Translations under genes and position numbers: made by a program
The notes under the pieces: model-generated
Seen by the model: only the letters and a program-made list of their open reading frames with translations
What the model was told of the DNA's origin: nothing
Database searches by the model: none
In this document: one piece after another, positions 2,107 to 46,026 of the stretch
Layout of the letters: each line of letters begins with the position of its first letter
Position numbering within the stretch: the first letter of the stretch is position 1
DNA from: Candidatus Poribacteria bacterium
Lineage (GTDB): Bacteria; Poribacteria; WGA-4E; PCPOR2b
NCBI GenBank assembly: GCA_965218095.1
Contig: OZ244587.1
Location: 1,408,001-1,472,000, forward strand
Reading direction: 5' to 3'
Length of the DNA stretch: 64,000 bases

Positions 2107-3508
2107 AGCTCGTCAAGACCTGCTGTGCTCGTTTTTCCCACTCATCACAGGTTGCGTGAGTCCGTTGTACAGATGCCCCGATGTACTTCGTTGGATTGTG
2201 AAGGACTTCCCGCTGATTTTCCGTCAACTTTTCGAGAAACGGTCGCAATGTCTCATCTTCCCACAGGAGGTCTGTCAGTTTCCGTCCCGTTTGATGGACT
2301 TGGGCGACGAGTTTGCGTGTGTGGTCGTAAGCATCGGGAAATCCATAATACGCCATCAAAATATAGATCGGTTCAGTGACCGTATCGCCCGCACTCATCT
2401 CAAGATTGCGTCGCATATTATCCACCTTCACATTCATCTCGTCTAACGCACGAATCAGGCGATAGATCGAGTAATCAAACGCCGTGAACAATTCCGTCAG
2501 GAAACGGATCGACGCTGAGTTGGTGAGATCGCGTTGATGTTCCAAGATCTGGTCCATGTATACTGTTGTCATGCGCGGCACGAAGGCTTTCCAGAGGCTC
2601 TTGATCGTTTCAAAATCTTCGGGATTGATCTTATGCGGCATGGTCGAAGATCCGACCAATTGTGGGTCGTACTTCTTGCTAATTTCCGCGATCTCTGTGC
2701 GATAGAGATGGCGGATGTCATCCGCGAAATTCGCAAGGATGGTGTAGGTAGATGTAATCGCATGCGCCAGATCGGTGATAAATTCCGGCTCAACACACTG
2801 CGTCGAAGTATGCGTATCCGATGGTTTCAGCCCAAGTTCAGCAAGGAGATCTGCCTCGATCCGCTCCGGATGCTCCGTGATCAGCGAAAGCCCGTTGAAT
2901 GCTCCTACCGCGCCTGAGAATTGTCCGCGAAGCTCTTGACTCGTCCGATCTATCAGTTGCATCCGATTTCCGATTCGGCTGACGTAAAGCGCGACAGCGT
3001 AACCGAAGGTAATTGGTTCTGCGTGCTGTCCATGCGTCCGTCCGATCTGCACCGTTTCTGCGTGGTTTCGCGCCAACTGAATCAACCGATCCTCAAGTTG
3101 GATTAGATCTGGCAAGATTACCTTTCGGGTCAGATCTTTGAAGCGCAGCGCCGTTGCGGTATCAAGGATGTCCGCCGACGTAGCAAAGAGGTGAACATAC
3201 GGACGCGCTTTGGGACTGATTTTCCGCTGAATCACATTGACAAGTGAACGGATGTTGTGGCGGATGCGTGATTGCTCTTTATAGACCTCCACCGCTGTTA
3301 CTTCGTGCGCCACCCGTTCAACTTCATCAGCGATCTCGTGGGAGCAGATTCTGTGTTTGGCAAGCGTCCGCACCAATGCGGCTTCGACTTTAGCTTGATA
3401 TTTGACGTAGGCACCTTCAGAAACGTAAGGGAGTAGTTTCTTCATAAAAGCTTCGCTGCCGCCGTAGTATCTGAAATCGAGTGGACTGACTGCTTCGTAA
3501 AGTTCCAT
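2099..3508 (-). CDS. purB: Adenylosuccinate lyase
   Basis: GRTHGQHAEP and GSSTMPHKINP signatures. Start placed at MELYEAVSPLD, preceded by AGGAG. Confidence 0.92.
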   Translation of the reverse strand: MELYEAVSPLDFRYYGGSEAFMKKLLPYVSEGAYVKYQAKVEAALVRTLAKHRICSHEIADEVERVAHEVTAVEVYKEQSRIRHNIRSLVNVIQRKISPKARPYVHLFATSADILDTATALRFKDLTRKVILPDLIQLEDRLIQLARNHAETVQIGRTHGQHAEPITFGYAVALYVSRIGNRMQLIDRTSQELRGQFSGAVGAFNGLSLITEHPERIEADLLAELGLKPSDTHTSTQCVEPEFITDLAHAITSTYTILANFADDIRHLYRTEIAEISKKYDPQLVGSSTMPHKINPEDFETIKSLWKAFVPRMTTVYMDQILEHQRDLTNSASIRFLTELFTAFDYSIYRLIRALDEMNVKVDNMRRNLEMSAGDTVTEPIYILMAYYGFPDAYDHTRKLVAQVHQTGRKLTDLLWEDETLRPFLEKLTENQREVLHNPTKYIGASVQRTHATCDEWEKRAQQVLTSCE

Positions 3509-7377: not shown

Positions 7378-7484
7378 TTTTCGCTCCTTTCTTGATTTTG
7401 GGTGTGTACTGCCATCGGAAATTTAGCCCATTGTCTAAACCAAGATTGTGATACAATGACAATCAGATTGAAAGGAGATTTCCG

Positions 7485-7769
7485 ATGGCAAAACGAAGAA
7501 GATTCACACCCCAATTTAAGGCGGAAGTCGTTATTGAGGCACTTATCAACCAAAGTTCACAAGCGCAACTCTGTCGACAGCATAACCTCAGCGAAGAACA
7601 ACTATCAAAGTGGAAACACCAACTCCTTGACAACGCAGCGATTCTCTTTGAATCCACTGATAAGCAATCCAACGACTCTAAAGAGCGGATTGCTCAACTG
7701 GAGCAACTCGTCGATCGATTGACCCTGGCATTAGACATCCCCAAAAAAGCCTCGACTTGGCTGACTTGA
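7485..7769 (+). CDS. IS3 transposase OrfA (HTH)
   Basis: RRRFTPQFKAEVV...LCRQHNL...LSKWK helix-turn-helix. Confidence 0.88.
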   Translation: MAKRRRFTPQFKAEVVIEALINQSSQAQLCRQHNLSEEQLSKWKHQLLDNAAILFESTDKQSNDSKERIAQLEQLVDRLTLALDIPKKASTWLT

Positions 7770-8605
7770 ATCGGTCTCAAAAGCGACAGATGGTTGAGGC
7801 TTTACAGACCAATTACTCGGTTCGACACATTTGTGAGGTTCTCGGCTTCAATCGGAGCAGTCTCTATTATCAACCCAAAAGCGACCCCTTAGAGCCAGTG
7901 CTACGAGATGAAATCGAAAAACTATCTGCCCGTTATCCGAAATATGGCTATAGGCGTATCACGCAGTTGCTGTTGCGTATGGGATACATGGTCGGTTACC
8001 GACGCGTCGCCCGATTGATGAAAGCGGATAATCTGCGGGTCGCCGTAAAACGTGGCAGTCAAACCACCCAATCGTTTGACTGTGTTGGTCAATCGGTCAA
8101 TCGGGTTGAGAATCTTGACATCTGTCGAAGCAATCAAGTTTGGGTCGGTGATATTACCTATGTCCGACTCAAAGGACAATTCGTCTATGTTTCGGTGTTA
8201 ATCGATGTCTTGACCCGAATGATAAGAGGTTGGCAGATGAGTCGGCACTTGACACAACCTCTCACATTAAGACCGTTGCAACAGGCATTAAGCCAAAGCA
8301 TTCCAGAAATTCATCATAGCGACCAGGGAGTTGAGTATCTTCCGACAGCCTATATTTCCACGCTTATCGGTCATGGGGTTGAGATTTCCTTAGCGCATCG
8401 GGGGCATCCGTGGGAGAACGGCTATGCTGAGAAGCTAATAAGAACCCTCAAGGAGGAAGAGGTCCATCTCAACGACTACGATGATATAATGGATGCCAGA
8501 GCGCGAATCGGTCATTTTATTGGACAGGTTTATAACCAGAAACGACCTCACTCGGCGTTAGGGTATTTGACGCCAGTTGAATTTGAGCAAAAACACTTGT
8601 CTTAA
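7757..8605 (+). CDS. IS3 transposase OrfB (DDE integrase core)
   Basis: YGYRRI, WVGDITY, HHSDQG, NGYAE, YNQKRPHSALGYLTP. Confidence 0.9.
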   Translation: MADLNRSQKRQMVEALQTNYSVRHICEVLGFNRSSLYYQPKSDPLEPVLRDEIEKLSARYPKYGYRRITQLLLRMGYMVGYRRVARLMKADNLRVAVKRGSQTTQSFDCVGQSVNRVENLDICRSNQVWVGDITYVRLKGQFVYVSVLIDVLTRMIRGWQMSRHLTQPLTLRPLQQALSQSIPEIHHSDQGVEYLPTAYISTLIGHGVEISLAHRGHPWENGYAEKLIRTLKEEEVHLNDYDDIMDARARIGHFIGQVYNQKRPHSALGYLTPVEFEQKHLS

Positions 8606-12734: not shown

Positions 12735-13361
12735 TTATCTGGAGTAAAGTTCAACGATTAACTGCGTTTCGAGGTCTGTAGCCAGTCGCTCTACGTTTGG
12801 AAATGCCCGAACAACTCCCTCTTGTTTGTCGGTGTTCAGCTCAAGCCACTCTGGCGTGCCCCTGTGCTGAGAACGTTCTAAGGCTTCTTGGATAACTGCC
12901 GCGTTGCGACTTTTCTCTCGCGTTTGAATAACATCACCAATTTTTATCAGAAAAGAGGGAATGTTGACTCGTTTTCCATTTACAAGGAAGTGGTTGTGTG
13001 TCACGAGTTGTCGAGCCTGCCGGCGTGAATTGGCGAACCCTAAACGGTACACCGCGTTATCCAACCGACGCTCCAATAATATAAGCAGATTTTCCCTCAC
13101 AACCCCTTTTTGGCGCGCCGCCATCGTATAGTAATTTTTAAATGGCTTTTCAAAAACGCTATAGATACGCTTTGATTTCTGCTTTGCACGCAATTGGCAC
13201 CCATAGTCTTTTACTTTCGGCAGTTTTTGACCATGTTGACCAGGCGGATAACTCCGACGCTCAAATGAACACTTCGGGGAATCACAACGTTGTCCCTTCA
13301 AAAAGAGCTTTTCCCCTTCTCTTCGGCATAGCTTGCACACAGATCCTAAATATTTGCTCAT
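12735..13361 (-). CDS. rpsD: 30S ribosomal protein S4 (Cys/Zn type)
   Basis: CKLCRREG...PPGQHG...LERRLDN. Confidence 0.97.
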   Translation of the reverse strand: MSKYLGSVCKLCRREGEKLFLKGQRCDSPKCSFERRSYPPGQHGQKLPKVKDYGCQLRAKQKSKRIYSVFEKPFKNYYTMAARQKGVVRENLLILLERRLDNAVYRLGFANSRRQARQLVTHNHFLVNGKRVNIPSFLIKIGDVIQTREKSRNAAVIQEALERSQHRGTPEWLELNTDKQEGVVRAFPNVERLATDLETQLIVELYSR

Positions 13362-16368: not shown

Positions 16369-16872
16369 TCAGTTTAACAGTTCCTCAACTGTTTTTCCGC
16401 GGAGGCGAGCCACTTCGTTAATGTCTTTTAGATCTCTCAGGGCTTTCATGGTAGCTTCTGCTGTATTTTTTACATTTCTGGATCCAAGTCGTTTGGTCAA
16501 TACATCTTGAACACCGGCAAACTCCAGAATTACTCTTGTTGCAATTCCAGCGATAATCCCTGTGCCAGGACTAGCAGGCTTAAGCAGAACCTTTGCCCCT
16601 CCATATTTACCTATCATTTCATGGGGAATTGTATTTCCTGATAAAGGGATACGAATCAGGTTTTTTTTCGCATCAGCAATACTTTTACCGATTGCTGATG
16701 GAATCTCGTTTGCGCTTCCAAATCCAAGCCCAACAATCCCTGCTCGGTCTCCGACGACGGAAAGTGCATTAAAGCTTGGTGTTCGTCCCCCTTTGCGCAC
16801 ACGCATCACGCGGTTGATATCGATTGGACGTTCCTCAAATTCAAACTCGTCCGGGTTAATTCTTTCCCTCAA
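16369..16872 (-). CDS. rpsE: 30S ribosomal protein S5
   Basis: INRV...KGGR, VVGD, PASPGTGIIAG; TTG start chosen after AAGGAG. Confidence 0.96.
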   Translation of the reverse strand: MRERINPDEFEFEERPIDINRVMRVRKGGRTPSFNALSVVGDRAGIVGLGFGSANEIPSAIGKSIADAKKNLIRIPLSGNTIPHEMIGKYGGAKVLLKPASPGTGIIAGIATRVILEFAGVQDVLTKRLGSRNVKNTAEATMKALRDLKDINEVARLRGKTVEELLN

Positions 16873-16952
16873 AAGCAAGTCTCCTTCACGATGAAATGCC
16901 CAGTTTATTTCCAAACGCGCTTATCATATAACCCCTCAAATAGCTAGCTGTT

Positions 16953-18008: not shown

Positions 18009-18407
18009 TTACCAAACATAACAGAGGACCTCACCGCCTATGTTGGCTTTTCGACATTCAGATGCCGTTTTCACACCTCGAGAGGTTGACAACAGAGCAA
18101 TTCCTAAATTGCCATACACGCGAGGTAACTGATCCGCTCTCACGTATACCCGCCGTCCCGGCTTGCTAATTCGCTTCAGTCCGGTAATAACCCGTTCTCT
18201 GTTTTCTCCATACTTCAAATAAATCCGCAAGATACCTTGTTTCCGATCATCAATCCAGCGATAGTTGCGGATATACCCCTCTTCATGTAAGGTACGAGTG
18301 AGCTCCATTTTTAATTTTGATGCGGGTATTTCAACACGCTCATGTCCAACCATATTCGCGTTGCGGATGCGGGTTAACATATCTGCAATCGGATCTGTCA
18401 TAGACAT
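18009..18407 (-). CDS. rpsH: 30S ribosomal protein S8
   Basis: [16 protein letters not shown]...SKPGRRVY...GGEVLCYVW. Confidence 0.97.
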
Positions 18408-18421
18408 GTAATTCTTCTCCT

Positions 18422-18607
18422 TTACCAACTTGCCTTTGTTACTCCGGGAATTTTCCCGCTTCTGGCGAATAGACGAAAACAAATCCGGCAAAGCTGAAAT
18501 TGACGCAGGTAACTGCGGGCACGTCCACAGTGGCGACAACGATTATATTTTCGTGTCCGAAATTTCGGAGTTCTCTTCTGTTTAGCAATGAGTGCTTTTG
18601 TTGCCAA
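18422..18607 (-). CDS. rpsZ: 30S ribosomal protein S14, Zn-binding 61-aa type
   Basis: RCRHCGR...LCRIC...PGVTKASW. Confidence 0.96.
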
Positions 18608-21054: not shown

Positions 21055-21891
21055 TTACCTTCCTTGACCCTGGCGAGATCTGCGTCGTTTTGGTTTCCTA
21101 TCAGCGGGTAAAGTCGAGTCTCCTTCCCCCCTGCCGCCGAAACGTCCAGCAGGCGAACGGCGTGGTTGGCGTCTTTGAGAGGAGTCAGTTGGCACCTGCC
21201 TCGTGCGGCTAGAAGGAGCAGTGATTTCTGGAAGGGCGGGTGTACCAATAATCTCTCCCTTGAAAATCCATGTTTTGACGCCAATCTTACCGTAGGTCGT
21301 ATTGGCTTCAGTGAATCCATAATCGATGTTCGCCCTAAGCGTATGCAGAGGAACCCTACCTTCAATATTCGATTCCGAACGTGCCATTTCGGCACCACCA
21401 AGGCGACCACTGATAGTGATTTTAACCCCTTGGGCACCGGCTTTCATTGAAGCCGCAATACTTTTCTTCATTGCCCGTCTGAAATTTGACCGACGCCCAA
21501 TTTGCAGCGCGACAGCTTCAGCAACAAGTTGAGCATCTAATTCAGGACGCTTAATCTCACTCACATTGATCCGAATGGTCCGTTCGGTTCGCGGCGCTGA
21601 ATCTACCTGCAGGATGTGCTCTAAATCTGCTTGTAATTTTTCTGCTTCAACTCCACGTCGCCCAATGACAATACCGGGACGCGCTGTATGTATATGAATA
21701 TTACACCGATCTCCAACTCTTTCGATTTCAATCCGGGAAATACCAGCACGTGACAACCTTTCCTTAATAAAGGACTGGATCTTCAAATCTTCATGAAGCC
21801 ATTGGGCATACTCTTTTTCAGTGTACCATTTTGAGTCCCAGGTCTCAATGATCCCCAAGCGTAATCCACGCGGATGCGTTTTCTGTCCCAC
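21055..21891 (-). CDS. rpsC: 30S ribosomal protein S3 with long basic C-terminal tail
   Basis: (V)[29 protein letters not shown]; GTG start after GAGG. Confidence 0.97.
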
Positions 21892-21986
21892 TAAAACCTC
21901 CTCATCAGAATTCAGCACGGCAAAGACTGCTGCTCAAGAGAGGTAAAAGGACATATATCAGTCTATGCAGCAGGTCTGCAGGATTT

Positions 21987-25838: not shown

Positions 25839-27038
25839 TCACTCAACAACTTTTGAAACGACGCCTGCTCCAACAGTGTGTCCACCTTCACGAATTGCGA
25901 ACCTGAGTTCCTCTTCCAAAGCAATCGGCTTGGTAAGCTCAACAGTAATATGGATATTATCTCCAGGCATGATCATCTCAACGCCTTCAGGCAGATTCAT
26001 GACGCCAGTCACATCTGTTGTACGGAAGTAGAACTGAGGACGATAGCCACTGAAAAATGGCGTCCAGCGACCACCTTCCTCTTTGGTCAGAATGTAGGTT
26101 TCAGCTTCAAAGCTTGTGTGCGGCGTAATACTACCAGGGGCCGCTAGCACTTGACCACGCTGAACATCTTGACGTTCAATACCACGCAGCAGCACGCCAA
26201 CGTTGTCGCCTGCACGCCCTTCGTCAAGGAGTTTACGGAACATCTCGACGCCGGTCGCAACAGTGCTGCGAGTGTCAGCAAGCCCAACGATCTCAACCGT
26301 ATCGCCAACATGCACGATTCCGCGTTCGATACGACCTGTCACAACAGTACCCCGCCCGGTGATTGAAAAGATATCTTCCACAGGCATAAGGTAGGGTCTA
26401 TCAACGTCCCGTATTGGCTCAGGAATATGATCGTCGCATGTCTGCATGAGCTCTAGAATCGAAGCACATTCAGGAGCATTCGGATCGCCACCACCTTCCA
26501 TGGCCTGGAGGGCGGAACCGCTAATAACCGGGATATCATCGCCTGGGAACTCGTATTCTGTCAGGAGTTCTCGGACTTCGAGTTCTACCAACTCCAGAAG
26601 CTCCGGGTCGTCAACCATGTCCGCTTTATTCAGATAAACAACGATACTCGGCACGTTAACCTGCCGCGCGAGAAGGACATGCTCACGGGTTTGGGGCATG
26701 GGACCATCAGCCGCAGAAACAACCAAGATTGCCCCATCCATCTGCGCCGCACCGGTAATCATGTTTTTGATATAGTCAGCATGCCCGGGGCAGTCAACGT
26801 GAGCATAGTGCCGATTCTCAGTTTCGTACTCAACATGCGCCGTGTTAATCGTAATACCGCGCTCCTTTTCTTCAGGAGCGGCGTCGATCTCATCGTAAGT
26901 TCTTATGTAGTCTTGGTTACCCAATTTTGACAACACCATAGTAATCGCGGCAGTTAACGTGGTCTTACCGTGATCGACGTGTCCAATTGTGCCAACATTG
27001 ACATGGGGCTTCGTCCGTTCAAATTTTGGTTTTGCCAT
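25839..27038 (-). CDS. tuf: Elongation factor Tu
   Basis: [21 protein letters not shown]. Confidence 0.99.
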
Positions 27039-27145: not shown

Positions 27146-29287
27146 CTAAGCAGAAAGTCCTTTTGATGAGATAATTTCCTGAGCAATGCTCTGTGGAACA
27201 TCACTGTAGTGTGCAAACTCCATCGAATAAGTCGCCCGCCCCTGCGTTAAAGACCGGAGGATTTTAACATAGCCAAACATTTCAGCCAGTGGAACATAGG
27301 CGCTAATCACTTGTATCCCAGACTTTGACTGCATATCCGTCTGGAGAATCCGTGCGCGACGTGCATTTAGATCACCCATCACCTTTCCTAAATACGCCTC
27401 AGGGACAATGACTTCGATTTCCATGATTGGTTCAAGCAGGTTTGAACCTGCTTTCTTCATCGCTTCTTTGAACGCAATCGAGGCAGCGATTGAAAACGCC
27501 ATTTCTGAAGAATCAACGGGATGATAGGAACCGTCGTACAATCTGACGCCGACATCAACAACGGGATACCCACTTAAAACCCCAACATTCATTGCATCTT
27601 CGATACCTTTACGGATAGCGCGTATATATTCCTGGGGGATGGCGCCGCCCTTGATCTCATCGACGAACTCAAAACCGCATCCCTGTTCTAAAGGGTAAAC
27701 TTCAATCTGCACATGTCCGTACTGACCGCGCCCACCGGATTGCTTGACAAAGCGTCCTTCAACTTTCGCCGACCGACGGACCGTTTCACGATACGCTACC
27801 TGGGGCTTCCCAATATCCGCAGACACCTTAAATTCTCGAATCAATCGGTCAACAATAACCTCCAGATGTAACTCTCCCATACCGGAGAGAAGGGTTTGCC
27901 CTGTTTCTTTGTCTTGATGAACCTTAAAAGTTGGATCTTCTTCAGCCAACTTTGATAACGCCAAGTTCATCTTCTCTATATCCGACTTTGTCTGGGGTTC
28001 AATTGCAATAGACATCACCGGAGATGGAAACACCATCGACTCCAAAGCGATTGGGGCATTTGGATGGCAAATTGTGTCGCCGGTCGTGACGGATTTGAGA
28101 CCAATGACTGTGGCAATATCACCCGCATACACAGCTTGACGCTCCTCACGCTTATTTGCGTGCATCTGCATCAGCCTCCCAATCTTTTCAAATCCGTGAC
28201 GTGTACTATTGTACACAGTATCCCCTTTGACTAAAACGCCAGAGTAAACACGGAGAAATGTAAGCTTTCCAATGTGCGCATCCGTCGTGATTTTGAAGGC
28301 TAATGCGGAAAAAGGTGCGTCGTCGCTTGCTAAACGCTTGTCTTCTTCTTGGGTATTTGGGTTCAAACCGATCACCGGCGGCACGTCTATCGGGGCAGGC
28401 AAATAATCAACAATCGCATCTAACAGAGGTTGGACACCCTTATTCTTGATTGCCGCGCCACACAAGACAGGAATTATCTTCCCATTTAACGTTGCGCCTC
28501 TCAAGCCGGCTTTGATTTCTTCGTCTGATAACTCAATCCCATCAATATATTTAATCAAGAGCTCACCATCATATTCAGCAATTGCTTCCAACATCTGTTC
28601 ACGATATTCCAGCACGCTTTCCATTACTTCTTCTGGAATATCTATTTCGTGCATAATAGATCCGAAACTTGTTTCGTCCCATCCAAGTCCTTGTAACGAA
28701 ATCAGATCCACAATGCCGCTGAATCTCTCCGATGAGCCAATCGGTAATTGGATTGGTATTACCCGGACGCCGAGCCGCTCAATCATCATTTCGAGCGTCC
28801 GGAAAAAGTCTGCACCGGTTCGATCCATTTTATTGACGAAGGCAATACGTGGCACCTGATATTTATCCGCTTGTCGCCATACAGTTTCGGACTGGGGTTC
28901 AACACCACCAACTGCACAGAATACAGCAACTGCCCCATCAAGAATTCGTAGCGATCGCTCAACTTCAACCGTAAAATCGATATGTCCAGGGGTATCAATA
29001 ATATTGATACAATGCCCATTCCATTGGCATGTCGTTGCAGCAGCGGTGATGGTAATGCCACGCTCTTGCTCCTGGACCATCCAATCCATTGTCGTAGTCC
29101 CATCGTCGACGTCACCCATGCGATGTACCCGCCCTGTATAGTATAATATGCGCTCGGTTACAGTTGTTTTCCCGGCATCAATGTGTGCCATGATGCCAAT
29201 ATTCCGCGTATGGGTCGAAGGAAATCGGCGTTGATCTATAGTCCGCCGGTTTTCAGATGTGATTTGATGCTGCTTTGCAAGTCTCAT
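27146..29287 (-). CDS. fusA: Elongation factor G
   Basis: [22 protein letters not shown]; start uncertain. Confidence 0.97.
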
Positions 29288-29334: not shown

Positions 29335-29808
29335 CTACCAACGGTAATGGGCAAATGCTCTGTTTGCCTCTGCCATGCGATGTTGATCGAGTTTTTTACG
29401 AATTGAAGCTCCTTCATTCCTCGAAGCATCGAGCAACTCTCCCGCCAACCGCTCTGATATGGTTTTCTCACCACGATCTCTTGCAGATTGGATAATCCAA
29501 CGGAGTGCCAGCGTTGTGCGACGCTCCGCCTTGACATCAACTGGAACCTGGTAAGTTGTACCTCCAACACGCCGAGATCGAATTTCAAGGACCGGTTTAA
29601 CGTTGTTAATCGCCTGACGGAAAACTGTAAGCCCCTCCTCCTGGTTACTGCGCTTCTCAACAATGTCTATACTATCATATAGAATTTTCCGGGCAACGCT
29701 TTTCTTCCCACAAACCATCAAGAAGTTTATAAACTTCGCAACAAGCGTACTGCCATATTTGGGATCTGAGAGGATTTCCCGTTTAACAATCTCTGCGCGT
29801 CGTGGCAT
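29335..29808 (-). CDS. rpsG: 30S ribosomal protein S7
   Basis: [22 protein letters not shown]. Confidence 0.98.
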
Positions 29809-29822
29809 CTCTTACTCCTCCT

Positions 29823-30194
29823 CTACCTGGGGCGCTTTGCTCCATATTTTGATCTGCCCTGTCTTCGATTTTCAACACCTGCTGTGTCCAATGTGCCCCG
29901 GACAATGTGATATCTGACATTGGGTAAATCTTTGACTCTTCCACCACGCACAAGCACAACAGAGTGCTCTTGAAGATTATGATCTATGCCGGGGATATAG
30001 CAAGTTGCTTCCTGACCATTCGTAAAACGGACACGAGCTACCTTCCGGAGGGCTGAATTCGGCTTCGTGGGTGTTACGGTCCTGACCTGTAAACAGATGC
30101 CTCGCCGTTGGGGACAATTTTCCAAAACGGGAGATTTACTTTTCTTACGTGGCCTTTTACGAGACTTTCTGACTAATTGACTAATTGTTGGCAT
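29823..30194 (-). CDS. rpsL: 30S ribosomal protein S12
   Basis: [23 protein letters not shown]. Confidence 0.98.
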
Positions 30195-30238
30195 ATTTAC
30201 CTCGAATAACTAATTGTTGGCATATTTACCTCGAATAA
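30181..30238. repeat. Exact 29-bp tandem duplication of the rpsL RBS and start
   Basis: CTAATTGTTGGCATATTTACCTCGAATAA x2. Confidence 0.92.
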
Positions 30239-30398
30239 CTGTGTGCAGACAAAAATAAAGCCCCATAGGGGCTCACAAAGTCGGACTCAATAATGGAGTA
30301 AAAACTTTGAAAAAACACACCAAAGTGCTTCGGGACTGAAAATCCCCCCCCTTCTGCCTAATTCAAGGCATATATCTAACGGCACTGTCGAAGGGTGA

Positions 30399-30427
30399 AT
30401 TATACCAAAACTATGATTGGATGTCAA
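30399..30427 (-). promoter_or_regulatory. Consensus sigma70 promoter of the ribosomal superoperon
   Basis: Minus strand TTGACA-17 nt-TATAAT with TG extension, about 200 nt upstream of rpsL. Confidence 0.88.
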
Positions 30428-30527
30428 GTGATTTTCTATATTTTTTGGTTTACACCATAAGGATTTTGAAGTTTTTTATAAGGCAAGCCGCTTTTTGATA
30501 ATGGCGTTTGATTTTCAAGTACAAACC

Positions 30528-30962
30528 TCAGGACTTTGATTCGAAGTAAACCGGATCCGGTTCGACCCACTCTTCTTCGCCATCTACCCAGACTTCGCGT
30601 TTCCAGATTGGCACGATTTGCTTGAGCCGGTTCATCGCGTAATGGCACGCCTCAAAAGCATCCTTACGATGCGGAGAAGCGACCGCAACGGCAACGCTAA
30701 CCTCACCAATTTCCAGCCGTCCCACACGATGAATCACGGCGACACGGTCTAGTCCCCACTTTTTGTAAATCTCCTGAGCAATTTCTGCCAGCTTCTTTTC
30801 GGCCATTGGTAGATAGGCTTCGTATTCGAGATAGGAGACCTCCCGACCTTCCGTGTTGTTGCGCACAGTGCCTAAAAAATGGACAATCGCCCCCGCATCA
30901 TCTGTTTCGACAGCGCGAATCACATCTTCCACTTTGATAACTTTCCTGGTAATCTTAAACAT
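30528..30962 (-). CDS. moaE: Molybdopterin synthase catalytic subunit
   Basis: GA..HFLGTVR, LEYEAY, HRVG.L, SPHR, VPIWKRE. Confidence 0.95.
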   Translation of the reverse strand: MFKITRKVIKVEDVIRAVETDDAGAIVHFLGTVRNNTEGREVSYLEYEAYLPMAEKKLAEIAQEIYKKWGLDRVAVIHRVGRLEIGEVSVAVAVASPHRKDAFEACHYAMNRLKQIVPIWKREVWVDGEEEWVEPDPVYFESKS

Positions 30963-38156: not shown

Positions 38157-40805
38157 TCACCCAATCGACGCTATTTCCAGATGCTCCTTCCACTGCGTCT
38201 GTAATATCTCTTTCAATACTTGATGCATTGACTGACGCAGGCCTGGGTCCGCCTTAGCGAGCTGGTTTGCTTCAGATTTAGCAACCTCAAGCAGCAAGGC
38301 ATCTTTGATAATATTGGCGATTTTGAAGTCCGGAAGCCCCGCTTGCCGGGTCCCAAAGAATTCGCCAGGACCCCGAATTTCTAAATCTGCCTCTGCAAGC
38401 TCGAAGCCGTCATTGGTTCGCGTCATCACTTTGATTCGGCGTATCCCATCGTCGGTCGTTGGGTTGCCGATGAGATGGCAGGAAGATTTGTGTCTGCCGC
38501 GCCCCACACGTCCACGTAACTGATGCAGTTGCGACAGTCCAAACCGCTCGGCGTTTTCAATCACCATGATCGAGGCGTTCGGCACGTCGATTCCCACTTC
38601 AATCACTGTGGTTGAAACCAGAACATCAATTTCTCGATTTTTGAGGCGGGACATCACGTCCTGTTTTTCCACGGATCGCATCCGTCCGTGCAGCAATCCA
38701 ACCCGCAAGTGTGGAAATACATCGCTCTGAAAGTGGTCTGCCATCTCCGTTGCAGCTTTAATCTCTTCCAACTTCTCGGATTCTTCAACGAGTGGGTAGA
38801 CGATGTAAGCCTGTCGCCCACGTTGGATCTGTCCTTCAATCTGCGCGTACAGTTTGCCGCGATCTGCCTCTTTCACCCATTTGGTCGTGATCTTCCGCCG
38901 TCCCGGTGGGAGTTCATCAATCACGGACACATTCAGGTCGCCGTAAACCGTCAAGGCGAGTGTCCGCGGGATAGGAGTCGCTGTCATGACGAGGACATCT
39001 GGTGTGTTCCCTTTGTCTCTGAGGGTTGCCCGCTGCATTACGCCGAACCGGTGTTGTTCGTCAATAATCACCAGTCCAAGCTGGTGAAATTCTACCCCCT
39101 CTTGGATCAGGGCGTGTGTCCCAACAATGACATGCGCCGCCCCGTCGGCGATAGCAGCGAGCACCTCATTACGTTCCTTCTTGGGGAGATCGCTCTTGAG
39201 TAAGACAACGTTCAAGTTCAACGGGGCGACCAGTTCTGACAGATTATAGGTATGTTGCTCGGCGAGAATCTCTGTGGGAACCATCAGTGCCCCTTGATAC
39301 CCGCTTTGGATGGCACACAGCAATGCCATCGCCCCAACGATTGTCTTGCCGGATCCGACATCACCTTGGAGCAGTCGATTCATTGCCTGTACGCTCGCCA
39401 TGTCCGCCTTAATCTCCTCGAAGACCCGTTCTTGCGCATTTGTCAGTCGAAATGGCAGCGCGCTGATAAACCGATCTAGCAGTTCTCCCTCGACTTGAAA
39501 GGCGAGCCCTTTCTCCTCTGTTTTCCACCGCTGCTTTTTGAGTTCAAGTCCCAACTCTAGCAGGAAAAATTCATCAAACGCAAGCCGCCTCCGCGCCGCT
39601 TCAAGGTACGCTTCCGATCTTGGAAAGTGAATCTCACCTATCGCGGTGCGCCGATCTATCAACTGATGTTTCTGTCGGATGTCTAGCGGCAAGATTTCGG
39701 GGTACTGCTCGGCGTACTCATCGAGCACCACTTTGACCCACTGACGGAGCATCCGTTGGGTAAGCTTCGCTGTCAACGGATACTTGGGTACAATCCGACC
39801 TGTGTGGATGAGATCGGCGTCCTCCTCTTCAAGGATCTCGAATTCAAAGTCGGTCGTTTGAATCTCGTTGTTGTGACGGGTGAACTTCCCGCTCACGACA
39901 ACCTGGGCACCGATCTTCAGCAGGCTTTTGAGATAGCCGACACGACGCCCAAAGCTGACAAGCTGCGCAACGCCAGTTTCATCGTAGACCGCAATCTTGC
40001 CGACGGGTTTCGCCCCCCGGCGACGCGGCGTAAATTGGGTTTGATTGACAACCTTGCCCTGAATCGTTTCATACTCACCGCTACGTCCGACTTCATAAAT
40101 CGACCGAAAATGCCCGCGATCAAGGTAGTCACGCGGGTAGTATTCCAGCAAATCGCCAACTGTGTGGATATTGAGTTCTACCGTGAGCTTCACCGCGCGG
40201 CGTGGTCCAATTCCATTTGCATACTGAATCTGCGTCTCTAGAAACTTCAGCGACGCCGGGTTGGTTGAAGCGGGGATATCCTCGATTGGTACTTCTTGTT
40301 CGATTTCGGACTCTTGATTGCGGATTTCGGATGTGCCGGTTGGGGCAATTGTGTCACATTGTCTATCAAAACCATTAGGGCTGGGCTGATTCACTAATTC
40401 CTGACTTTCTCCGCCACTTCCTTCCGAGGGGGAAGAAACTTTCGCTGGTCCGCTGGACAGCGATTGAAACAAGGGCAGGTCGTTAACAGCCTCGCGCGGC
40501 ACAGATTTTTTAGTAGGTGGTGTTTTCAGGCTTTCCGGTGTCATCTCGTCGATCTGCTTCACAGCGGCTTGTACTACATTCAGCCGTTCCATCGGTGACA
40601 ACGCCTCATAATCTGTGAACAGATCTGCCAGCGTACTGAGCGACTGTTTTTCTGAGAGACTCAGCGTCAACCGTCGGGCGTTCTTAATCCAGAGTTGGAC
40701 ATAGACGCCTAAGCCGTTAATCACCACGCTGTCTCGGCAACCGCTCCGGATTTCCTGCTGAAACGGGCGTCGGATTGTCGTTAGAATTTCTGTGAGCTCA
40801 TTCAT
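38157..40805 (-). CDS. recG: ATP-dependent DNA helicase RecG with N-terminal extension
   Basis: YYPRDY, RLLQGDVGSGKT, DEQH, MTATPIPRT, QLRGRVGR, DLEIRGPGE. Confidence 0.96.
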   Translation of the reverse strand: MNELTEILTTIRRPFQQEIRSGCRDSVVINGLGVYVQLWIKNARRLTLSLSEKQSLSTLADLFTDYEALSPMERLNVVQAAVKQIDEMTPESLKTPPTKKSVPREAVNDLPLFQSLSSGPAKVSSPSEGSGGESQELVNQPSPNGFDRQCDTIAPTGTSEIRNQESEIEQEVPIEDIPASTNPASLKFLETQIQYANGIGPRRAVKLTVELNIHTVGDLLEYYPRDYLDRGHFRSIYEVGRSGEYETIQGKVVNQTQFTPRRRGAKPVGKIAVYDETGVAQLVSFGRRVGYLKSLLKIGAQVVVSGKFTRHNNEIQTTDFEFEILEEEDADLIHTGRIVPKYPLTAKLTQRMLRQWVKVVLDEYAEQYPEILPLDIRQKHQLIDRRTAIGEIHFPRSEAYLEAARRRLAFDEFFLLELGLELKKQRWKTEEKGLAFQVEGELLDRFISALPFRLTNAQERVFEEIKADMASVQAMNRLLQGDVGSGKTIVGAMALLCAIQSGYQGALMVPTEILAEQHTYNLSELVAPLNLNVVLLKSDLPKKERNEVLAAIADGAAHVIVGTHALIQEGVEFHQLGLVIIDEQHRFGVMQRATLRDKGNTPDVLVMTATPIPRTLALTVYGDLNVSVIDELPPGRRKITTKWVKEADRGKLYAQIEGQIQRGRQAYIVYPLVEESEKLEEIKAATEMADHFQSDVFPHLRVGLLHGRMRSVEKQDVMSRLKNREIDVLVSTTVIEVGIDVPNASIMVIENAERFGLSQLHQLRGRVGRGRHKSSCHLIGNPTTDDGIRRIKVMTRTNDGFELAEADLEIRGPGEFFGTRQAGLPDFKIANIIKDALLLEVAKSEANQLAKADPGLRQSMHQVLKEILQTQWKEHLEIASIG

Positions 40806-40869: not shown

Positions 40870-41718
40870 GGTTCTGTTGACATTTGAGTATAAGGTTGTG
40901 GCATAATAGAAGAATGACGCCAATAACCTTACCTGATGAACAATGGAATAAGATATACCGGTTTCTTCTTAGCTGTCCCACCATCTATGTTGGCGACGAA
41001 GCTGCTACACGCCGCTTCGTCGAAGCCGTCCTGTGGGTGACTCGTAGTGGCGCTCAATGGAGACTTCTACCAGACACCTATGGCAAATGGAACACCCGCT
41101 ACAAGCGGTTTGCTCGATGGTGCGACAAAGGTATCTTCACACAGATGCACCACCACTTCGCCTCTGACCCCGATATTAAGTCGCTTATTGTGGACAGTAC
41201 CATCTGCCGCGCTCACCCGTCTGCGGCGGGCACCTTAAAAAGCTGGCGCCTTAAAAAACCGGTGGCACTGAAAACCAAGCATTAGGTCGCTCTCGGGGCG
41301 GTTTCAGTACAAAAATTCACATCACCGTTGACGGACTAGGCAATCCCCTAAGAATTCATCTGACACCCGGTCAGAGACATGACATAACTGAGGCGGAAGG
41401 GTTGATAATCGGATATAACAGTGAATATGTGATTGGAGACTAAGGGGTACGATTCGGACGCTTTTATCGCGGTTATTGAGGCGAATGGAGCGATTGCGGT
41501 GATACCGCCAAAAAGTCATCGTGTTGACCAAAGAACGTATGACAAACACTTACTACAAAGAGAGACATCGGGTTGAATGTTTCATCAACAAGATAAAATG
41601 GTATCGTCGTATCTTCTCTCGGTTTGTCTCTCGGTTTGAGAAGCTAGCTGTCCGTTATTTTGGATTTCTCAGCTTTGTCGCCACTCTTATATGGCTCCCT
41701 TGAAATGTCAACAGAACC
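40870..41718 (+). mobile_element. IS5-family (IS427-like) element with degenerate transposase
   Basis: Perfect 16-bp TIR GGTTCTGTTGACATTT with TA on both sides; GAQWR.LP..YG.W, VDST..RAH and YKERHRVEC motifs split over frames. Confidence 0.9.
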
Positions 41719-41767: not shown

Positions 41768-43342
41768 TTAGTCCGCAAATCCCCCAGTCATCAATAGCCC
41801 GATTTTGGACAGGTCATCCCGAAACTGCGTTGCCTCCGTCAGCACCCCCTTGTACATGACAAAGATTCGGTCGCTCAACGCCAGTACCTCATCAAGTTCT
41901 GTGGAGATTAGCAGCACGGCGCGTTGCCCCTGACGCTGTTCGAGAAGCTGTTGATGCACATAGTCGGTCGCCCCGATATCCAATCCGCGGGTTGGATTGA
42001 CAGCCAGCAGCAGTTGTGGCTCTTGTGAAAGCTCCCGCGCAACAACAACCTTCTGCTGATTTCCCCCGGATAACGACTTCGCCGGTGCATGCGGATGGGT
42101 CGTCCGCACGTCATAGCGTTGGATTAGTGCCTCGGCATCGGCGTCAATCCGTTTGAGATCTAAGAACGCCTTCCAACCTTTGAAAGGTTTGAAACCTTTC
42201 AAAGGTTTTGACTGATATCCCTTGAGTCGATGAACGTTGAGAATCAGATTCTCCGCGATTGTGAAACTCAGAATGAGTCCAGCTATCTGTCGGTCTTCGG
42301 GAATATAGCCATATCCCAATTGGCGACTCTTGCTCGTTGGGAGATTGGTGATTGACTGTCCGTTAAAACGGATGGTACCGCTCTGAGACCTGCGCAGCCC
42401 AACAATTGCTTCCATCAGTTCGATTTGTCCATTACCATCAATGCCAGCGATGCCCACGATTTCGCCGGCGCAGACATCAAATGGGCAGCTATCAACCGCA
42501 ACCTGATCACGGTGTCCGACAACGGTTAAATCGCGGATTTCAAGGATTGGCGGGCCGGGGGCTTGGGCGCTTCGCTGAATCTGTAGTAACTCGTGTCCGA
42601 TCATCTGTTTCGCTAAATGGGCGGGAGAGGTGTCAGCGACTTTCGTAGTCGCAACACGCTTACCGCGACGCAACACGGTAATCCGATCGCTGATTTTCAT
42701 CACCTCTTTCAGCTTATGGCTGATGAAGATAATGGAATGCCCATCGGATTTGAGACGACGAAGGATGGCGAACAGTTCCGTAATCTCTTGTGGAGACAGA
42801 ACCGCGGTCGGCTCATCGAGGATAAGGATTCGTGCATCCGCTGAAAGCGCTTTGAGGATCTCAACCCGTTGCTGAAGCCCGACCGAAAGCTGCCAGACCT
42901 TCATGTGCGGTGAGATGGACAGACTGTAACGGGTGGAAAGCTGCTGGACATTTTCCTCGGCTTCGTTCCGCCGAAACCGAAATTTGCCACATCCAGAACT
43001 GAGGGCAATATTTTCAGCCACGCTCAGCGAAGGCACAAGCGTAAAGTGCTGATGCACCATGCCAATCCCGTGAGCAATCGCGGTCTTCGGTGAATCAATA
43101 ACGATCGGCTTCCCGTCGATCAGAATCTCCCCGGCATCGGGTTGATACAAGCCGTAGATCAGGTTCATCAGTGTGGACTTACCCGCCCCGTTTTCACCGA
43201 GTAGCGTGTGAATCTCCCCCTGCCGCAACGCGAAATCCACGCCATCCACGGCGAGGTTGTTCCCGAATGCTTTGGTGATGCCGTGCAGTTCAAGTGCGAA
43301 AGACGATTTGATAGAGTTCATTAGCCGGTTAAGAACCCTCAC
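41768..43342 (-). CDS. Nucleoside/sugar ABC transporter ATPase (CUT2, two NBDs)
   Basis: GENGAGKS, LDEPT, ISHKL, LSGGNQQK, PTRGLD. Confidence 0.93.
   Translation of the reverse strand: MRVLNRLMNSIKSSFALELHGITKAFGNNLAVDGVDFALRQGEIHTLLGENGAGKSTLMNLIYGLYQPDAGEILIDGKPIVIDSPKTAIAHGIGMVHQHFTLVPSLSVAENIALSSGCGKFRFRRNEAEENVQQLSTRYSLSISPHMKVWQLSVGLQQRVEILKALSADARILILDEPTAVLSPQEITELFAILRRLKSDGHSIIFISHKLKEVMKISDRITVLRRGKRVATTKVADTSPAHLAKQMIGHELLQIQRSAQAPGPPILEIRDLTVVGHRDQVAVDSCPFDVCAGEIVGIAGIDGNGQIELMEAIVGLRRSQSGTIRFNGQSITNLPTSKSRQLGYGYIPEDRQIAGLILSFTIAENLILNVHRLKGYQSKPLKGFKPFKGWKAFLDLKRIDADAEALIQRYDVRTTHPHAPAKSLSGGNQQKVVVARELSQEPQLLLAVNPTRGLDIGATDYVHQQLLEQRQGQRAVLLISTELDEVLALSDRIFVMYKGVLTEATQFRDDLSKIGLLMTGGFAD
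42175..42207. repeat. 33-bp palindrome inserted in frame in the ABC ATPase
   Basis: AACCTTTGAAAGGTTT-G-AAACCTTTCAAAGGTT, read as KPLKGFKPFKGW. Confidence 0.85.
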
Positions 43343-44458
43343 GAACGGGAACGAAAAGAACGCTCATCCGTCTCCCCAAAAAACAACTCTTCACTTTGAG
43401 TTACCATTTGAATAGCAATTCGATCTTTTAAGATTCGTGGACTGAAATTTGTGCGAACTTCTTCATCAACTCGGTCCAGTAAATATGGGATCTCGTGGCC
43501 GGGATTGTTCATTTGACAATCAGCTACCATGATGCGTAGCATATCCTCCAAATGATCTTTGTGTACCTCAAAACCGAATGCTTTTTGCCGAGGCTTAAAA
43601 ACACCTCTGAATATATCACGGGCAATACCATTTTTAAAATCATCTAATACATAGCGGTTCCGAGTTTCGCCGGGATTTCTGTTTGGCGCGTTGCTCTGAT
43701 TTAAGTGGTTTTCTAAAGTTTCAATCACATAAATTTCACCGGATTTAAGGGCGCGAGCGAATTTGGTAAATACAGGATTCGCTATATTTTTGATGACACC
43801 CAGAACTTGCTTTTTTTTACTTGCAAACAACCTGTTATACAATTGCACCCCTTCTTGACTTGATACAAGGTATTCATCGACCAAAGGACCATCCAAGAAC
43901 AGATATGGCTCATTAATTTCAAGGCAGTGCTCAACCTCATAGTATCGTAAGTATGCTGTCGGATATATGCCGAAAAGACCTCGTTTTTCGCGTGCAATGA
44001 AATCATCCGTATCGGCTGCATCAGAGAGCAAAACCTTGCTTGACCACATAGTGTAACGAGTCTTGCATCGGCCGACAATGTGAGAGGCTACCAATGCCAA
44101 CGCAAATCGCTTGCCCTGCTGAATATTTCTGCATCGGAAGGGCGAAGGTTCCGTCTATAGCGGCGACCTCCCCTTTCTCTAATTCTCTCGCTTCACTGAA
44201 TAAACCAAACTCCACCTTACGCAACGGGGGTAAACGGGGATTAGCTGGATCATCTTCCATAGTCTCGCGCGCTTCCTGTATTGCCCGATTTACCTGATCG
44301 CTGTTGAGCATTTCTACAACATCGTCGGCGATCCCACCGAAATTAGAGGCGAACTCATTTCTCAATACACGTCTCGATCCACGGAGGAGTTCGTGAAACA
44401 TTTCAACCTGTCGCTTGCGTTTCGATGGGTTGAAGAGTTCCCAAATCCTTCTGAACAT
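43339..44458 (-). pseudogene. NurA-like (RNase H fold) nuclease split by a one-base frameshift near 44047
   Basis: VAAIDGT, LFLDGPL, VLGVIK and IPYLL..V.E motifs. Frame switch at CAC TAT G TGG TCA; the joined product is about 372 aa. Confidence 0.72.
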
Positions 44459-44478: not shown

Positions 44479-46026
44479 TTAGCTGCTATTCGGGACCGTG
44501 TTATCGCTACGCATGAGTTCAAATGGAGATGGCGCCATCTGTACCAGAACAACAGCGAACGATTCAAACATCTTAACAAGGGCATGACCCGTACCAAGTC
44601 CTAACGCCTCTACAGAAAACCCTCTTCCCATTGTCTGCGTTGCAGAGTCCGCTTCATCCTTGCTGTTCTGATGCATCACTATATGCGTGTTGAGATTATT
44701 CATCACAAGCTGAGGGATTTGTGAAGCGTTTTGAAGACTAAGAATAATTGAGTGATCAAGAGTTCGCCCTTCACGCATAATGCGGTTGAATGAACCAGCG
44801 AGTGTATCGCTGTAACGTGACTCATTATCAAAAATGCGATGTGCTTCATCTACCATGTGAACAATGCCCATTCCTTCTCCCTTACTGCGATGCGATTGGC
44901 AACCATCCAAGACGTAAGACAAGAGTAAGGCATAGGATGAATCGTCCATCTGTGAATAATCAATGACCAAAATCCGCCCTTTACTTACATCAAAATCAAA
45001 TTGGCGTATTGTCTCGCCGTCAACAGCATCAAGCCATGGCATTTCCTCCCTGCGGGCTCGGACTTTTCGCAATATGGTGTTCCCCGTTCCACCATGAATC
45101 CGTTCTCCCGGATCTACGGACTCCATGCGATTTTGGACAACTTTCAAGATGTCATCAAGTGAATATGACTTCGTCTCAATAGAATCGGCGGCACTCGCAA
45201 ATCCTTCAAATTGTAGTTCTTCCTCTGTTCTAGGAAAGAAGAAACCCGCCAACATAGGTGGTGATAAATCTGATGCCCTGCACCCAGCGACAATATCTAC
45301 ACGGTTTGGATCGCACTTGCCGTGGAATCCAACACGAGTTACGCGATTAGCTGAACGAGGTTTCAATTCATATTTTTCAAAGCGTTTCCAGATGGTTCCT
45401 ACATTTGGGTCGCTATTTTGAGACTTAATCAACTCATAGTCAGGCTTTGCGTCATGAACCAAAACGCATTTGTTAAATTTCATTGCCTGATTGATTAAAT
45501 TCCCGGCAATGTTTGATTTTCCCGAACCTGTCCCACCTGCAATCATGATGTGGTGGTTAAACGTTCGCGCATCAATGCAGAGCGGCACACCGTTTGCATT
45601 GAGAAGTTCACCGATGACATTAAAACTTCCATCTGTATGCGTTGCTTTCTGAGGGATTCCAATAACTCGGTTTATCGTTTCTATATCCAGCTCAGTCACG
45701 GGAGCACCCGGCAAGGGACGTATCCGGGGTGTGAGCATCTGATGCCCGTCATATTCTCCTAATATCAATATATCAAATACCTGTACTGACTCTACGGATT
45801 GCACATCGTCGCAGGACTCCATAAGTTTGAGTCCATGAAGAATCGTTGGATCAAGGGGATTACCCACAATCGAGATATTTCGGTTAGGTTGGACAACCTG
45901 TCCAATCCAAGATTTATCACCTTGATCCATACGGACATAATCAAACAAAGCAAACTCTTCCTCCATTCGTCCCATTGCCTGAATATGCGTTAAGTCGCTG
46001 TTTGGATTGTCATGTAATATGATCAT
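44479..46026 (-). CDS. HerA/FtsK-superfamily ATPase (HAS barrel plus DUF87-like)
   Basis: Beta-rich N-terminus, HHIMIAGGTGSGKS (Walker A), HMVDEAH (Walker B), REGR arginine finger, SLQ motif; GGAGG RBS. Confidence 0.88.
   Translation of the reverse strand: MIILHDNPNSDLTHIQAMGRMEEEFALFDYVRMDQGDKSWIGQVVQPNRNISIVGNPLDPTILHGLKLMESCDDVQSVESVQVFDILILGEYDGHQMLTPRIRPLPGAPVTELDIETINRVIGIPQKATHTDGSFNVIGELLNANGVPLCIDARTFNHHIMIAGGTGSGKSNIAGNLINQAMKFNKCVLVHDAKPDYELIKSQNSDPNVGTIWKRFEKYELKPRSANRVTRVGFHGKCDPNRVDIVAGCRASDLSPPMLAGFFFPRTEEELQFEGFASAADSIETKSYSLDDILKVVQNRMESVDPGERIHGGTGNTILRKVRARREEMPWLDAVDGETIRQFDFDVSKGRILVIDYSQMDDSSYALLLSYVLDGCQSHRSKGEGMGIVHMVDEAHRIFDNESRYSDTLAGSFNRIMREGRTLDHSIILSLQNASQIPQLVMNNLNTHIVMHQNSKDEADSATQTMGRGFSVEALGLGTGHALVKMFESFAVVLVQMAPSPFELMRSDNTVPNSS

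Follow-up and report, generated by a model that had tools for sequence, protein, structure and literature searches.

Phylum-Wide Asn92 and a Labile Residue 43 in Ribosomal Protein S12 of Candidatus Poribacteria

Ribosomal protein S12 (uS12), the product of the rpsL gene, was analyzed here in a 64,000-nucleotide stretch of a Candidatus Poribacteria genome (assembly GCA_965218095.1, contig OZ244587.1, positions 1,408,001 to 1,472,000 of the forward strand), which is referred to throughout as the window. Few residues of the bacterial ribosome are as conserved as Lys43 and Gly92 of S12, which set streptomycin binding and decoding accuracy. In the S12 protein of the window they are replaced by threonine and asparagine, respectively. 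The alignments and the species tree place the Gly92 to Asn substitution once, at the base of Poribacteria, together with fixed changes at positions 33, 57, 63, and 71. They also show residue 43 to be unusually labile within the phylum, where it occurs as K, N, T, S, R, or I. We consider it probable that the whole phylum has a retuned decoding centre that tolerates the loss of Lys43, with streptomycin insensitivity as its predicted outcome. Natural wild types with resistance-type rpsL genes are already known, but the literature searched contained no report of an asparagine fixed at position 92 of an entire phylum and combined with a toggling residue 43 in which the costly N and T states prevail.

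The comparison draws on several samples. A scan of species-representative genomes with rpsL gave 551 confirmed stretches, from which 80 loci were kept, 21 from Poribacteria and 59 from other phyla. At the protein level, a similarity search in which the best 120 of 8,000 scored matches were listed was joined by a wider set of 252 distinct related S12 proteins, which was gathered by similarity to the query and is hence biased; 213 proteins with Asn92 were parsed from it. Background was provided by the best 150 cluster representatives at 50% identity, 149 of which cover position 43. The species tree is a maximum likelihood tree of concatenated S7 and EF-G with 32 rows (22 Poribacteria and 10 outgroup) and 865 columns. 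The S12 of the window is 93–98% identical to that of the nearest Poribacteria loci, and the closest taxon-named S12 proteins among the matches listed are those of Candidatus Poribacteria. The corresponding identities are 84–85% for S7 and 80–83% for EF-G, values that mark the window as belonging to a separate Poribacteria species.

Identity of the rpsL Gene and Its Two Unusual Codons

The rpsL open reading frame (ORF) of the window encodes a full-length uS12. It scores 213.9 bits against the TIGR00981 (rpsL_bact) profile, for which the cut-off is 112.95, and residues 1–123 align with profile positions 1–123 of 124. The ORF also matches solved S12 chains in a structure-chain alignment (E = 3e-58), and the two best-matching chains carry K and G at columns 43 and 92. 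The protein is recognizable as a bacterial uS12 by its KPNSA motif, which presumably contacts the codon–anticodon helix, and by Asp89, which we take to be the site methylthiolated by RimO. The 121 aligned S12 sequences all share P42, K44, P45, and D89. Lys88, the other classic streptomycin-resistance site, is unchanged in the window. The canonical hallmarks of the streptomycin pocket, Lys43 and Gly92, are absent, and membership in the uS12 family does not require them.

The sequence-only reading of this stretch had reported ACG for threonine at position 43 and AAT for asparagine at position 92; the minus-strand sequence and the translation agree on both (Table 1). That reading had also argued that a Gly to Asn replacement needs two base changes and is unlikely to be a read error. 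The step count is right, and both codons recur in loci L001 and L006, which come from independent chromosome-level Poribacteria assemblies. The identical 123-residue protein is encoded on 11 public contigs from several sources, the longest of 6.35 Mb. The rpsL gene of the window differs from those of L001 and L006 at 35–38 synonymous codons, and the count relative to L001, 38 synonymous and only 5 non-synonymous codons, points to purifying selection on the gene. Judged from this recurrence, the Thr43 and Asn92 codons are not sequencing or assembly errors.

An explanation by artefact, in which the codons are errors or rpsL is a decaying or secondary gene beside a canonical copy, was also weighed. 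Such a second copy would matter, as streptomycin sensitivity is dominant over resistance when both rpsL copies are present. A single S12 copy was found in the search, which covered the 64-kb window only, and a perfect 29-bp duplication private to the window at the start of rpsL is a possible hint of a local assembly problem. Set against these two points are the recurrence of the same protein on contigs from several sources and of the same codons in independent assemblies, an intact ORF within a canonical operon with a score far over the family cut-off, and the strong skew of codon changes toward synonymous ones. In a survey of 15,721 species, moreover, two rpsL copies were found in only 15 retained genomes (preprint 10.64898/2026.06.09.731231). 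The explanation by artefact is close to refuted and is given hardly any weight here. From its sequence, and with the copy count taken within the 64-kb window, the gene is regarded as the single functional rpsL gene of this Candidatus Poribacteria genome.

Asn92 as a Fixed Feature of the Phylum

The sequence-only reading had proposed an alignment of S12 across the phylum as a check, and this alignment separates Poribacteria from the other phyla at position 92 and finds residue 43 variable. Asn92, encoded by AAT or AAC, occurs in all 21 Poribacteria loci, whereas each of the 59 loci outside the phylum has Gly92. The Poribacteria rows form a clade with a support of 100 in the tree of S7 and EF-G, and position 92 needs one change on it. 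Among the 252 related proteins, 216 have Asn92 and 36 have Gly92. In the background of 150 cluster representatives, position 92 is glycine in 148, serine in one, alanine in one, and asparagine in none; the serine and alanine representatives are P0286 and P0328.

Four further residues are fixed in the 22 Poribacteria rows relative to the 10 outgroup rows, namely Ile33 (Val in the outgroup), Phe57 (Leu), Ala63 (Val), and Asp71 (Gly), the last apart from one row with X. Asp71 directly precedes the HNLQEH segment. The S12 of the window has all five of the residues Ile33, Phe57, Ala63, Asp71, and Asn92, a combination that we call Poribacteria-type S12; the label is coined here and denotes no established family.

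In a second search, with a profile built from 33 more distant Asn92 sequences, the taxon-named matches are Poribacteria (P0180, P0182) with two exceptions, one named 'bacterium' and one named 'Fervidobacterium' on a 1.1-kb contig. The first protein search had likewise given one Asn92 match named 'Zixiibacteriota', on a 1.8-kb contig. The 'Fervidobacterium' and 'Zixiibacteriota' matches, both on short contigs, may be mis-binned. Cluster look-ups provided no further taxon names for Asn92 proteins.

As a separate observation, the profile search also gave P0169, P0170, and P0239, which do not come from the window: predicted proteins of 229–231 residues in which S12 occurs twice in tandem, and a 146-residue protein with an internal repeat. 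All are encoded on contigs shorter than 1.5 kb and are probably assembly chimeras.

Toggling of Residue 43 within Poribacteria

Outside the phylum, residue 43 is lysine in 59 of 59 loci and in 149 of 149 cluster representatives that cover the position. Within the 21 Poribacteria loci, it is N in 11, K in 6, T in 2 (L001 and L006), S in 1 (L008), and R in 1 (L025). At least six changes are required at this position among the 22 Poribacteria rows of the tree, compared to none among the 10 outgroup rows, and it is the joint third most changeable of the 123 S12 columns. Chromosome-level Poribacteria assemblies represent the states T43 (OZ252032.1 and OZ244042.1), K43 (OZ242335.1 and OZ220744.1), N43 (for example OZ246958.1 and OZ242310.1), S43 (OZ244048.1), and R43 (OZ241378.1).

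Lys43 is found in the two rows that branch off first, L005 and L018, as well as in L007, so that Lys43 with Pro91 and Asn92 is likely to be the ancestral combination. Thr43 (ACG) is shared by the window, L006, and L001, among which the nested pair L002 and L003 has Lys43 (AAG). The most economical reading of this clade is one gain of threonine (AAG to ACG) and one reversal to lysine in the nested pair. The other large clade has a basal Asn43, always encoded by AAC, along with Ser91; within it, L008 has Ser43 (AGT) and the sisters L013 and L025 have Lys43 (AAA) and Arg43 (AGA), respectively. A single clade was rejected by the approximately unbiased (AU) test both for the T43 rows (p = 1.1e-7) and for the N43 rows (p = 4e-4), with the groups named after the tree had been seen.

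Thr43 emerges from these comparisons as a stable clade-level state, kept over substantial divergence. In the 90% cluster of the window, however, all 13 other members listed have Lys43, which makes Thr43 a minority state even in close relatives. Thr43 and Asn92 had been described by the sequence-only reading as a double allele. Both residues are real, but they are not of one age, Asn92 being ancient and phylum-wide and Thr43 a younger, clade-level state. As a check for horizontal transfer of the T43 allele, the proportion of codons that the window shares with the T43 species was compared among genes; it is 68–70% for rpsL, 61–64% for rpsG, and 54–59% for fusA. The value for rpsL is only slightly higher, which speaks clearly neither for nor against transfer.

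The wider protein set extends this picture. Residues other than lysine occupy position 43 in 34 of 213 Asn92 proteins (R in 16, N in 13, I in 3, and T in 2) versus 0 of 36 Gly92 proteins, a difference with a Fisher p of 0.0066 in a query-biased sample and with relatedness ignored. Positions 88 and 91 vary as well. Position 88 is arginine in 85 of the 213 Asn92 proteins, and position 91 is serine in 96, alanine in 65, and proline in 52. Arg43 is always accompanied by Arg88 and Ala91 (16 of 16).

A candidate partner of T, N, or S at position 43, Val40, was dropped. The pairing is perfect in 22 loci, and the independent contrasts are concordant in three of three cases on supported branches (p = 0.25) and in all four on all branches.

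S12 Substitutions in Model Bacteria and in Natural Lineages

Papers that count residues of the mature protein number the two positions one lower (Table 1). In the structure of the Thermus 30S subunit with streptomycin, Lys42 forms a hydrogen bond with the drug and a salt bridge with A913 of helix 27 (PMC2916820). The A913 bridge is kept in K42R, which is non-restrictive, and is broken in K42A and K42T, which are strongly error-restrictive (PMC2916820). The K42T and K42N mutants of Klebsiella have a minimum inhibitory concentration of >1,024 µg/ml and relative fitness values of 0.85 and 0.82, respectively, a growth-rate cost, while G91D and P90L are streptomycin-dependent (PMC4182516). G92D and P91L were not introducible into E. 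coli without the drug (PMC13390409). At P90 of Thermus S12, small side chains lead to resistance and bulky ones to dependence through a clash with helix 44; P90L is suppressed by C1490U, and P90 dependence can also be relieved within S12 itself by K42 mutations (PMC3884664).

Laboratory and clinical K42T/K43T and K42N alleles, known from E. coli, Klebsiella, Salmonella, and Mycobacterium, affect the same residue as Thr43 of the window, and the threonine replacement involves the same AAG to ACG change. These K42T alleles are recent, drug-selected mutants, whereas Thr43 of the window is a long-lived wild type that spans species of an uncultured phylum. Its Asn92 background is present in no model organism. 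Alleles of the P90/G91 loop (P90L/R/Q/W, P90A/G/C, and G91D) alter the same loop and position as Asn92 of the window, and Poribacteria relatives have A or S at proline 91, of which A is a resistance-type residue in Thermus (PMC3884664). G91D, in contrast, introduces an aspartate, while in Poribacteria an asparagine has become fixed as the wild-type residue throughout a phylum that is unlikely to depend on the drug. Its fixation in 21 of 21 species loci argues against drug dependence.

A screen of 15,721 species found an allele of a curated, high-confidence resistance panel (43R/43N/43T, 86C, 88R/88E, 91L, and 92D) in 7.57%, and ~70% of those have 88R (preprint 10.64898/2026.06.09.731231). Seven species have alleles beyond 88R and 43R, including 43N, 43T, and combinations, and the rarity of the other alleles was ascribed to fitness cost (preprint 10.64898/2026.06.09.731231). 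Thr43 of the window is a panel allele; Asn92 lies at a panel position, but the panel residue there is 92D. The main text of the same preprint makes no mention of Poribacteria (10.64898/2026.06.09.731231). No occurrence of G92N or G91N was found in the rpsL literature searched, and the papers listed for Poribacteria together with streptomycin (judged by titles and abstract openings) or rpsL looked unrelated.

Lineages predicted to have natural, intrinsic resistance through rpsL (Planctomycetia with 88R; Sphingomonadales and Devosiaceae; Wolbachia and Ehrlichia with 43R; Coriobacteriia) resemble Poribacteria in that their variants are clade-wide wild types, lie at streptomycin-resistance positions, and were found by comparative genomics. 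These lineages have stable, low-cost 88R or 43R, whereas Poribacteria have a fixed 92N and an unstable residue 43 that includes the costly N and T.

A Proposed Retuned Decoding Centre and Its Alternatives

The sequence-only reading had put forward two options for this environmental lineage, intrinsic streptomycin resistance or a retuned decoding centre. The comparative fit of the latter is good, with Asn92 fixed and positions 43, 88, and 91 varying among resistance states. Poribacteria have a rebuilt form of the S12 loop that packs on helix 44 of 16S rRNA beside the streptomycin site. In the mechanism that we propose from the genetics and structures of model organisms, Asn92 adjoins Pro91, which packs on C1490 of helix 44. 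Thr43 lacks the amine that contacts streptomycin and helix 27, and poor drug binding and an error-restrictive bias are expected as a result. More tentatively, Asn92 may have shifted the equilibrium of the decoding site and changed the fitness landscape at position 43, such that the loss of Lys43 is tolerated or even favoured. This epistasis between Asn92 and residue 43 is proposed by analogy with model bacteria, where substitutions in the P90 loop displace the same equilibrium and K42 mutations suppress them from within the gene. Streptomycin insensitivity is predicted for lineages with T43, N43, S43, I43, or R43, the window included; for the lineage of the window the prediction is made by homology.

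Several points weigh against this proposal. All of its functional statements are carried over from Enterobacteria, Mycobacterium, and Thermus, which have Gly92, and Asn92 could be neutral. Asn92 arose once, and the epistasis therefore rests on a single evolutionary event, with an effective sample size of one. Relatedness is left out of account in the Fisher test, and the protein sets are query-biased. The combination of K43 with N92 is the commonest (179 of 213) and is also present in the earliest-branching L005 and L018; being both common and early, it implies that Asn92 does not require the loss of Lys43. Finally, the wider protein set contradicts Val40 as a partner of T, N, or S at position 43, with V40 and K43 as the commonest pair (104).

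The states observed at residue 43 also suggest another explanation, antibiotic-driven selection by streptomycin-like aminoglycosides in the sponge consortium. N, T, S, R, or I at position 43, 88R, 91A, and 91S would then represent recurrent target-site resistance, and the reversions to lysine would reflect drug-free periods. The states N, T, R, and I, with S reached via N, are indeed those from laboratory streptomycin selections, and 43R, 43N, and 43T make up three of the eight panel alleles (preprint 10.64898/2026.06.09.731231). The single-step alternatives Q, E, and M are absent from position 43 among the 216 Asn92 proteins. The 16 of 16 co-occurrence of R43 with R88 and A91 stacks resistance-type states, and the repeated gains and apparent reversals of residue 43 on the tree point in the same direction. 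However, no aminoglycoside biosynthesis or modification genes were found in the window, no evidence of such exposure was found, and the papers listed for Poribacteria and streptomycin, as noted from their titles and abstract openings, looked unrelated. Thr43 was kept while about one third of the synonymous codons of rpsL changed, which is more readily reconciled with a stable state than with episodic selection, and antibiotic selection leaves the fixed Asn92 unexplained. As the sole cause, this form of selection is considered unlikely.

Relaxed constraint would account for the same variation without any drug. In slow-growing symbionts a cost in speed would be near-neutral, residue 43 would drift, and Asn92 would be an unrelated neutral marker. 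The back-and-forth between K and T and between N and K resembles such near-neutral toggling, what K42N and K42T cost model bacteria is growth rate (PMC4182516), and variation within Poribacteria extends to several further S12 columns in which the 10 outgroup rows do not vary. On the other hand, purifying selection acts strongly on the rpsL gene in its entirety (38 synonymous versus 5 non-synonymous differences from L001), and the variation is concentrated at positions 43, 88, and 91, which contact the drug or helix 44, and is not protein-wide. In the published screen, other endosymbionts such as Wolbachia have 43R, which is free of cost, in place of 43N or 43T (preprint 10.64898/2026.06.09.731231). 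Relaxed constraint by itself appears somewhat less probable still than antibiotic selection. Both may act together with the retuned decoding centre that we favour.

A stronger form of the retuned decoding centre can be stated, which we regard as possible but doubtful. It holds that Asn92 removes the fitness cost of losing Lys43, that residue 43 switches freely or adaptively, and that most sponge-associated species are streptomycin-insensitive with restrictive ribosomes. If so, matching changes are expected in helix 44 of 16S rRNA (around positions 1409–1410 and 1490–1491) or in helix 27, and streptomycin would be usable as a selective agent to enrich uncultured Poribacteria symbionts.

Poribacteria appear to break the rule that restrictive alleles fail to persist, since 14 of the 21 species loci have N, T, or S at position 43, and the phylum may offer a naturally replicated test of how residues of one decoding-centre protein interact epistatically. 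Intrinsic streptomycin insensitivity would then be predicted for an uncultured phylum of sponge symbionts and could provide an enrichment handle, as streptomycin already does for Planctomycetes. In metagenomes, residue-based resistance calls would flag such harmless environmental wild types.

Leader and Start Region of rpsL

The 5' leader of rpsL (~30195–30430, minus strand) is strongly conserved in five species, the other four being represented by L001, L002, L003, and L006 (~2795–3000). Its promoter-like element and G+C-rich hairpin are listed in Table 1. The consensus fold of the five sequences has 47 pairs, of which 4 show compensatory changes, and its outer helix joins an upstream segment to the Shine-Dalgarno region. 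The region may represent a ribosomal-protein leader or attenuator of a kind not yet described, but five such similar sequences do not suffice for a verdict. An Rfam identity was rejected, the single match being Spot_42 at chance level (18.6 bits, E = 0.35).

The 29-bp duplication is private to the window; it is absent in 21 of 21 Poribacteria loci and in the leader alignment. Its upstream copy opens an 8-codon mini-ORF with a TAA stop 2 nucleotides ahead of the true ATG. The duplication may be a real recent event or an assembly artefact.

Table 1. Positions of rpsL, its key codons and leader elements, and other features of the window.
Feature	Position	Strand	Basis or remark
rpsL, uS12, 123 residues, Poribacteria type	29823..30194	-	ORF and TIGR00981 profile
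Codon 43, ACG = Thr	30066..30068	-	Lys near-universal; E. coli mature K42
Codon 92, AAT = Asn	29919..29921	-	Gly near-universal; E. coli mature G91
Codons 88–89, AAA GAT = Lys88 and Asp89, both canonical	29928..29933	-	Minus-strand sequence
Promoter-like TTGACA-17-TATAAT, 12/12 matches, TG-extended	30399..30427	-	Kept in L001, L002, L003, L006
G+C-rich hairpin followed by T-run in rpsL leader	30258..30274	-	Leader alignment and fold
Perfect 29-bp tandem duplication, 2.1 copies	30180..30240		Spans ribosome-binding site, ATG, and first four rpsL codons
rpsG (S7), next gene after rpsL	29335..29808	-	TIGR01029, 211.4 bits
fusA (EF-G)	27146..29287	-	TIGR00484, 1076 bits
tuf (EF-Tu)	25839..27038	-	Profile scan
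rpsE (S5), accuracy partner of S12	16369..16914	-	TIGR01021, 195.1 bits
rpsD (S4), accuracy partner of S12	12735..13361	-	NF003717, 256.4 bits
MoaE-like molybdopterin synthase subunit gene	30528..30962	-	Upstream neighbor of rpsL
L22	21987..22505	-	172 residues
S3	21055..21918	-	287 residues
S8	18009..18539	-	176 residues
RecG	38157..40805	-	882 residues
IS5-family transposase fragment	40884..41285	+	133 residues, truncated
ORF adjoining the ATPase	43339..44100	-	253 residues
ATPase	44479..46026	-	515 residues
Small ORF upstream of IS3-family transposase	7402..7722	+	Part of 7402–8605
IS3-family transposase ORF	7757..8605	+	256 bits

Gene Neighborhood

The rpsL gene is the first of the str operon rpsL-rpsG-fusA-tuf, with the genes for S7, EF-G, and EF-Tu next on the same strand. 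After tuf, the S10, spc, and alpha ribosomal-protein operons continue to ~11352. A ram-type truncation of S4 was ruled out, as residues 1–208 cover all profile positions (1–202 of 202, NF003717). No rRNA or any other Rfam family was found at gathering score in the 64-kb window, and neither RsmG nor RimO was found among the 71 window ORFs scanned.

The upstream neighbor of rpsL is the MoaE-like gene and not rpoB/rpoC, and the RNA polymerase genes are apart from the str operon here. The ribosomal-protein region is flanked by an IS3-family transposase, which spans 7402–8605 together with the small ORF upstream of it, and by an IS5-family fragment, which aligns to profile positions 4–110 of 258.

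Farther along the window, the 515-residue ATPase has weak matches of the HerA/FtsK/VirB4 type (best E = 4.8e-13) that are far under the cut-offs, and the adjoining 253-residue ORF is without a family match; the two could be a HerA-like helicase pair. RecG is covered by NF008168 over residues 9–881, and other RecG models begin at about residue 181–211, which suggests that the protein is N-terminally extended relative to many RecG proteins. Three ribosomal proteins are also longer than their profile matches: the match ends at residue 225 in S3 and starts at residue 53 in L22 and at residue 45 in S8. The excess length represents either real extensions or over-long start calls in the mechanical ORF list.

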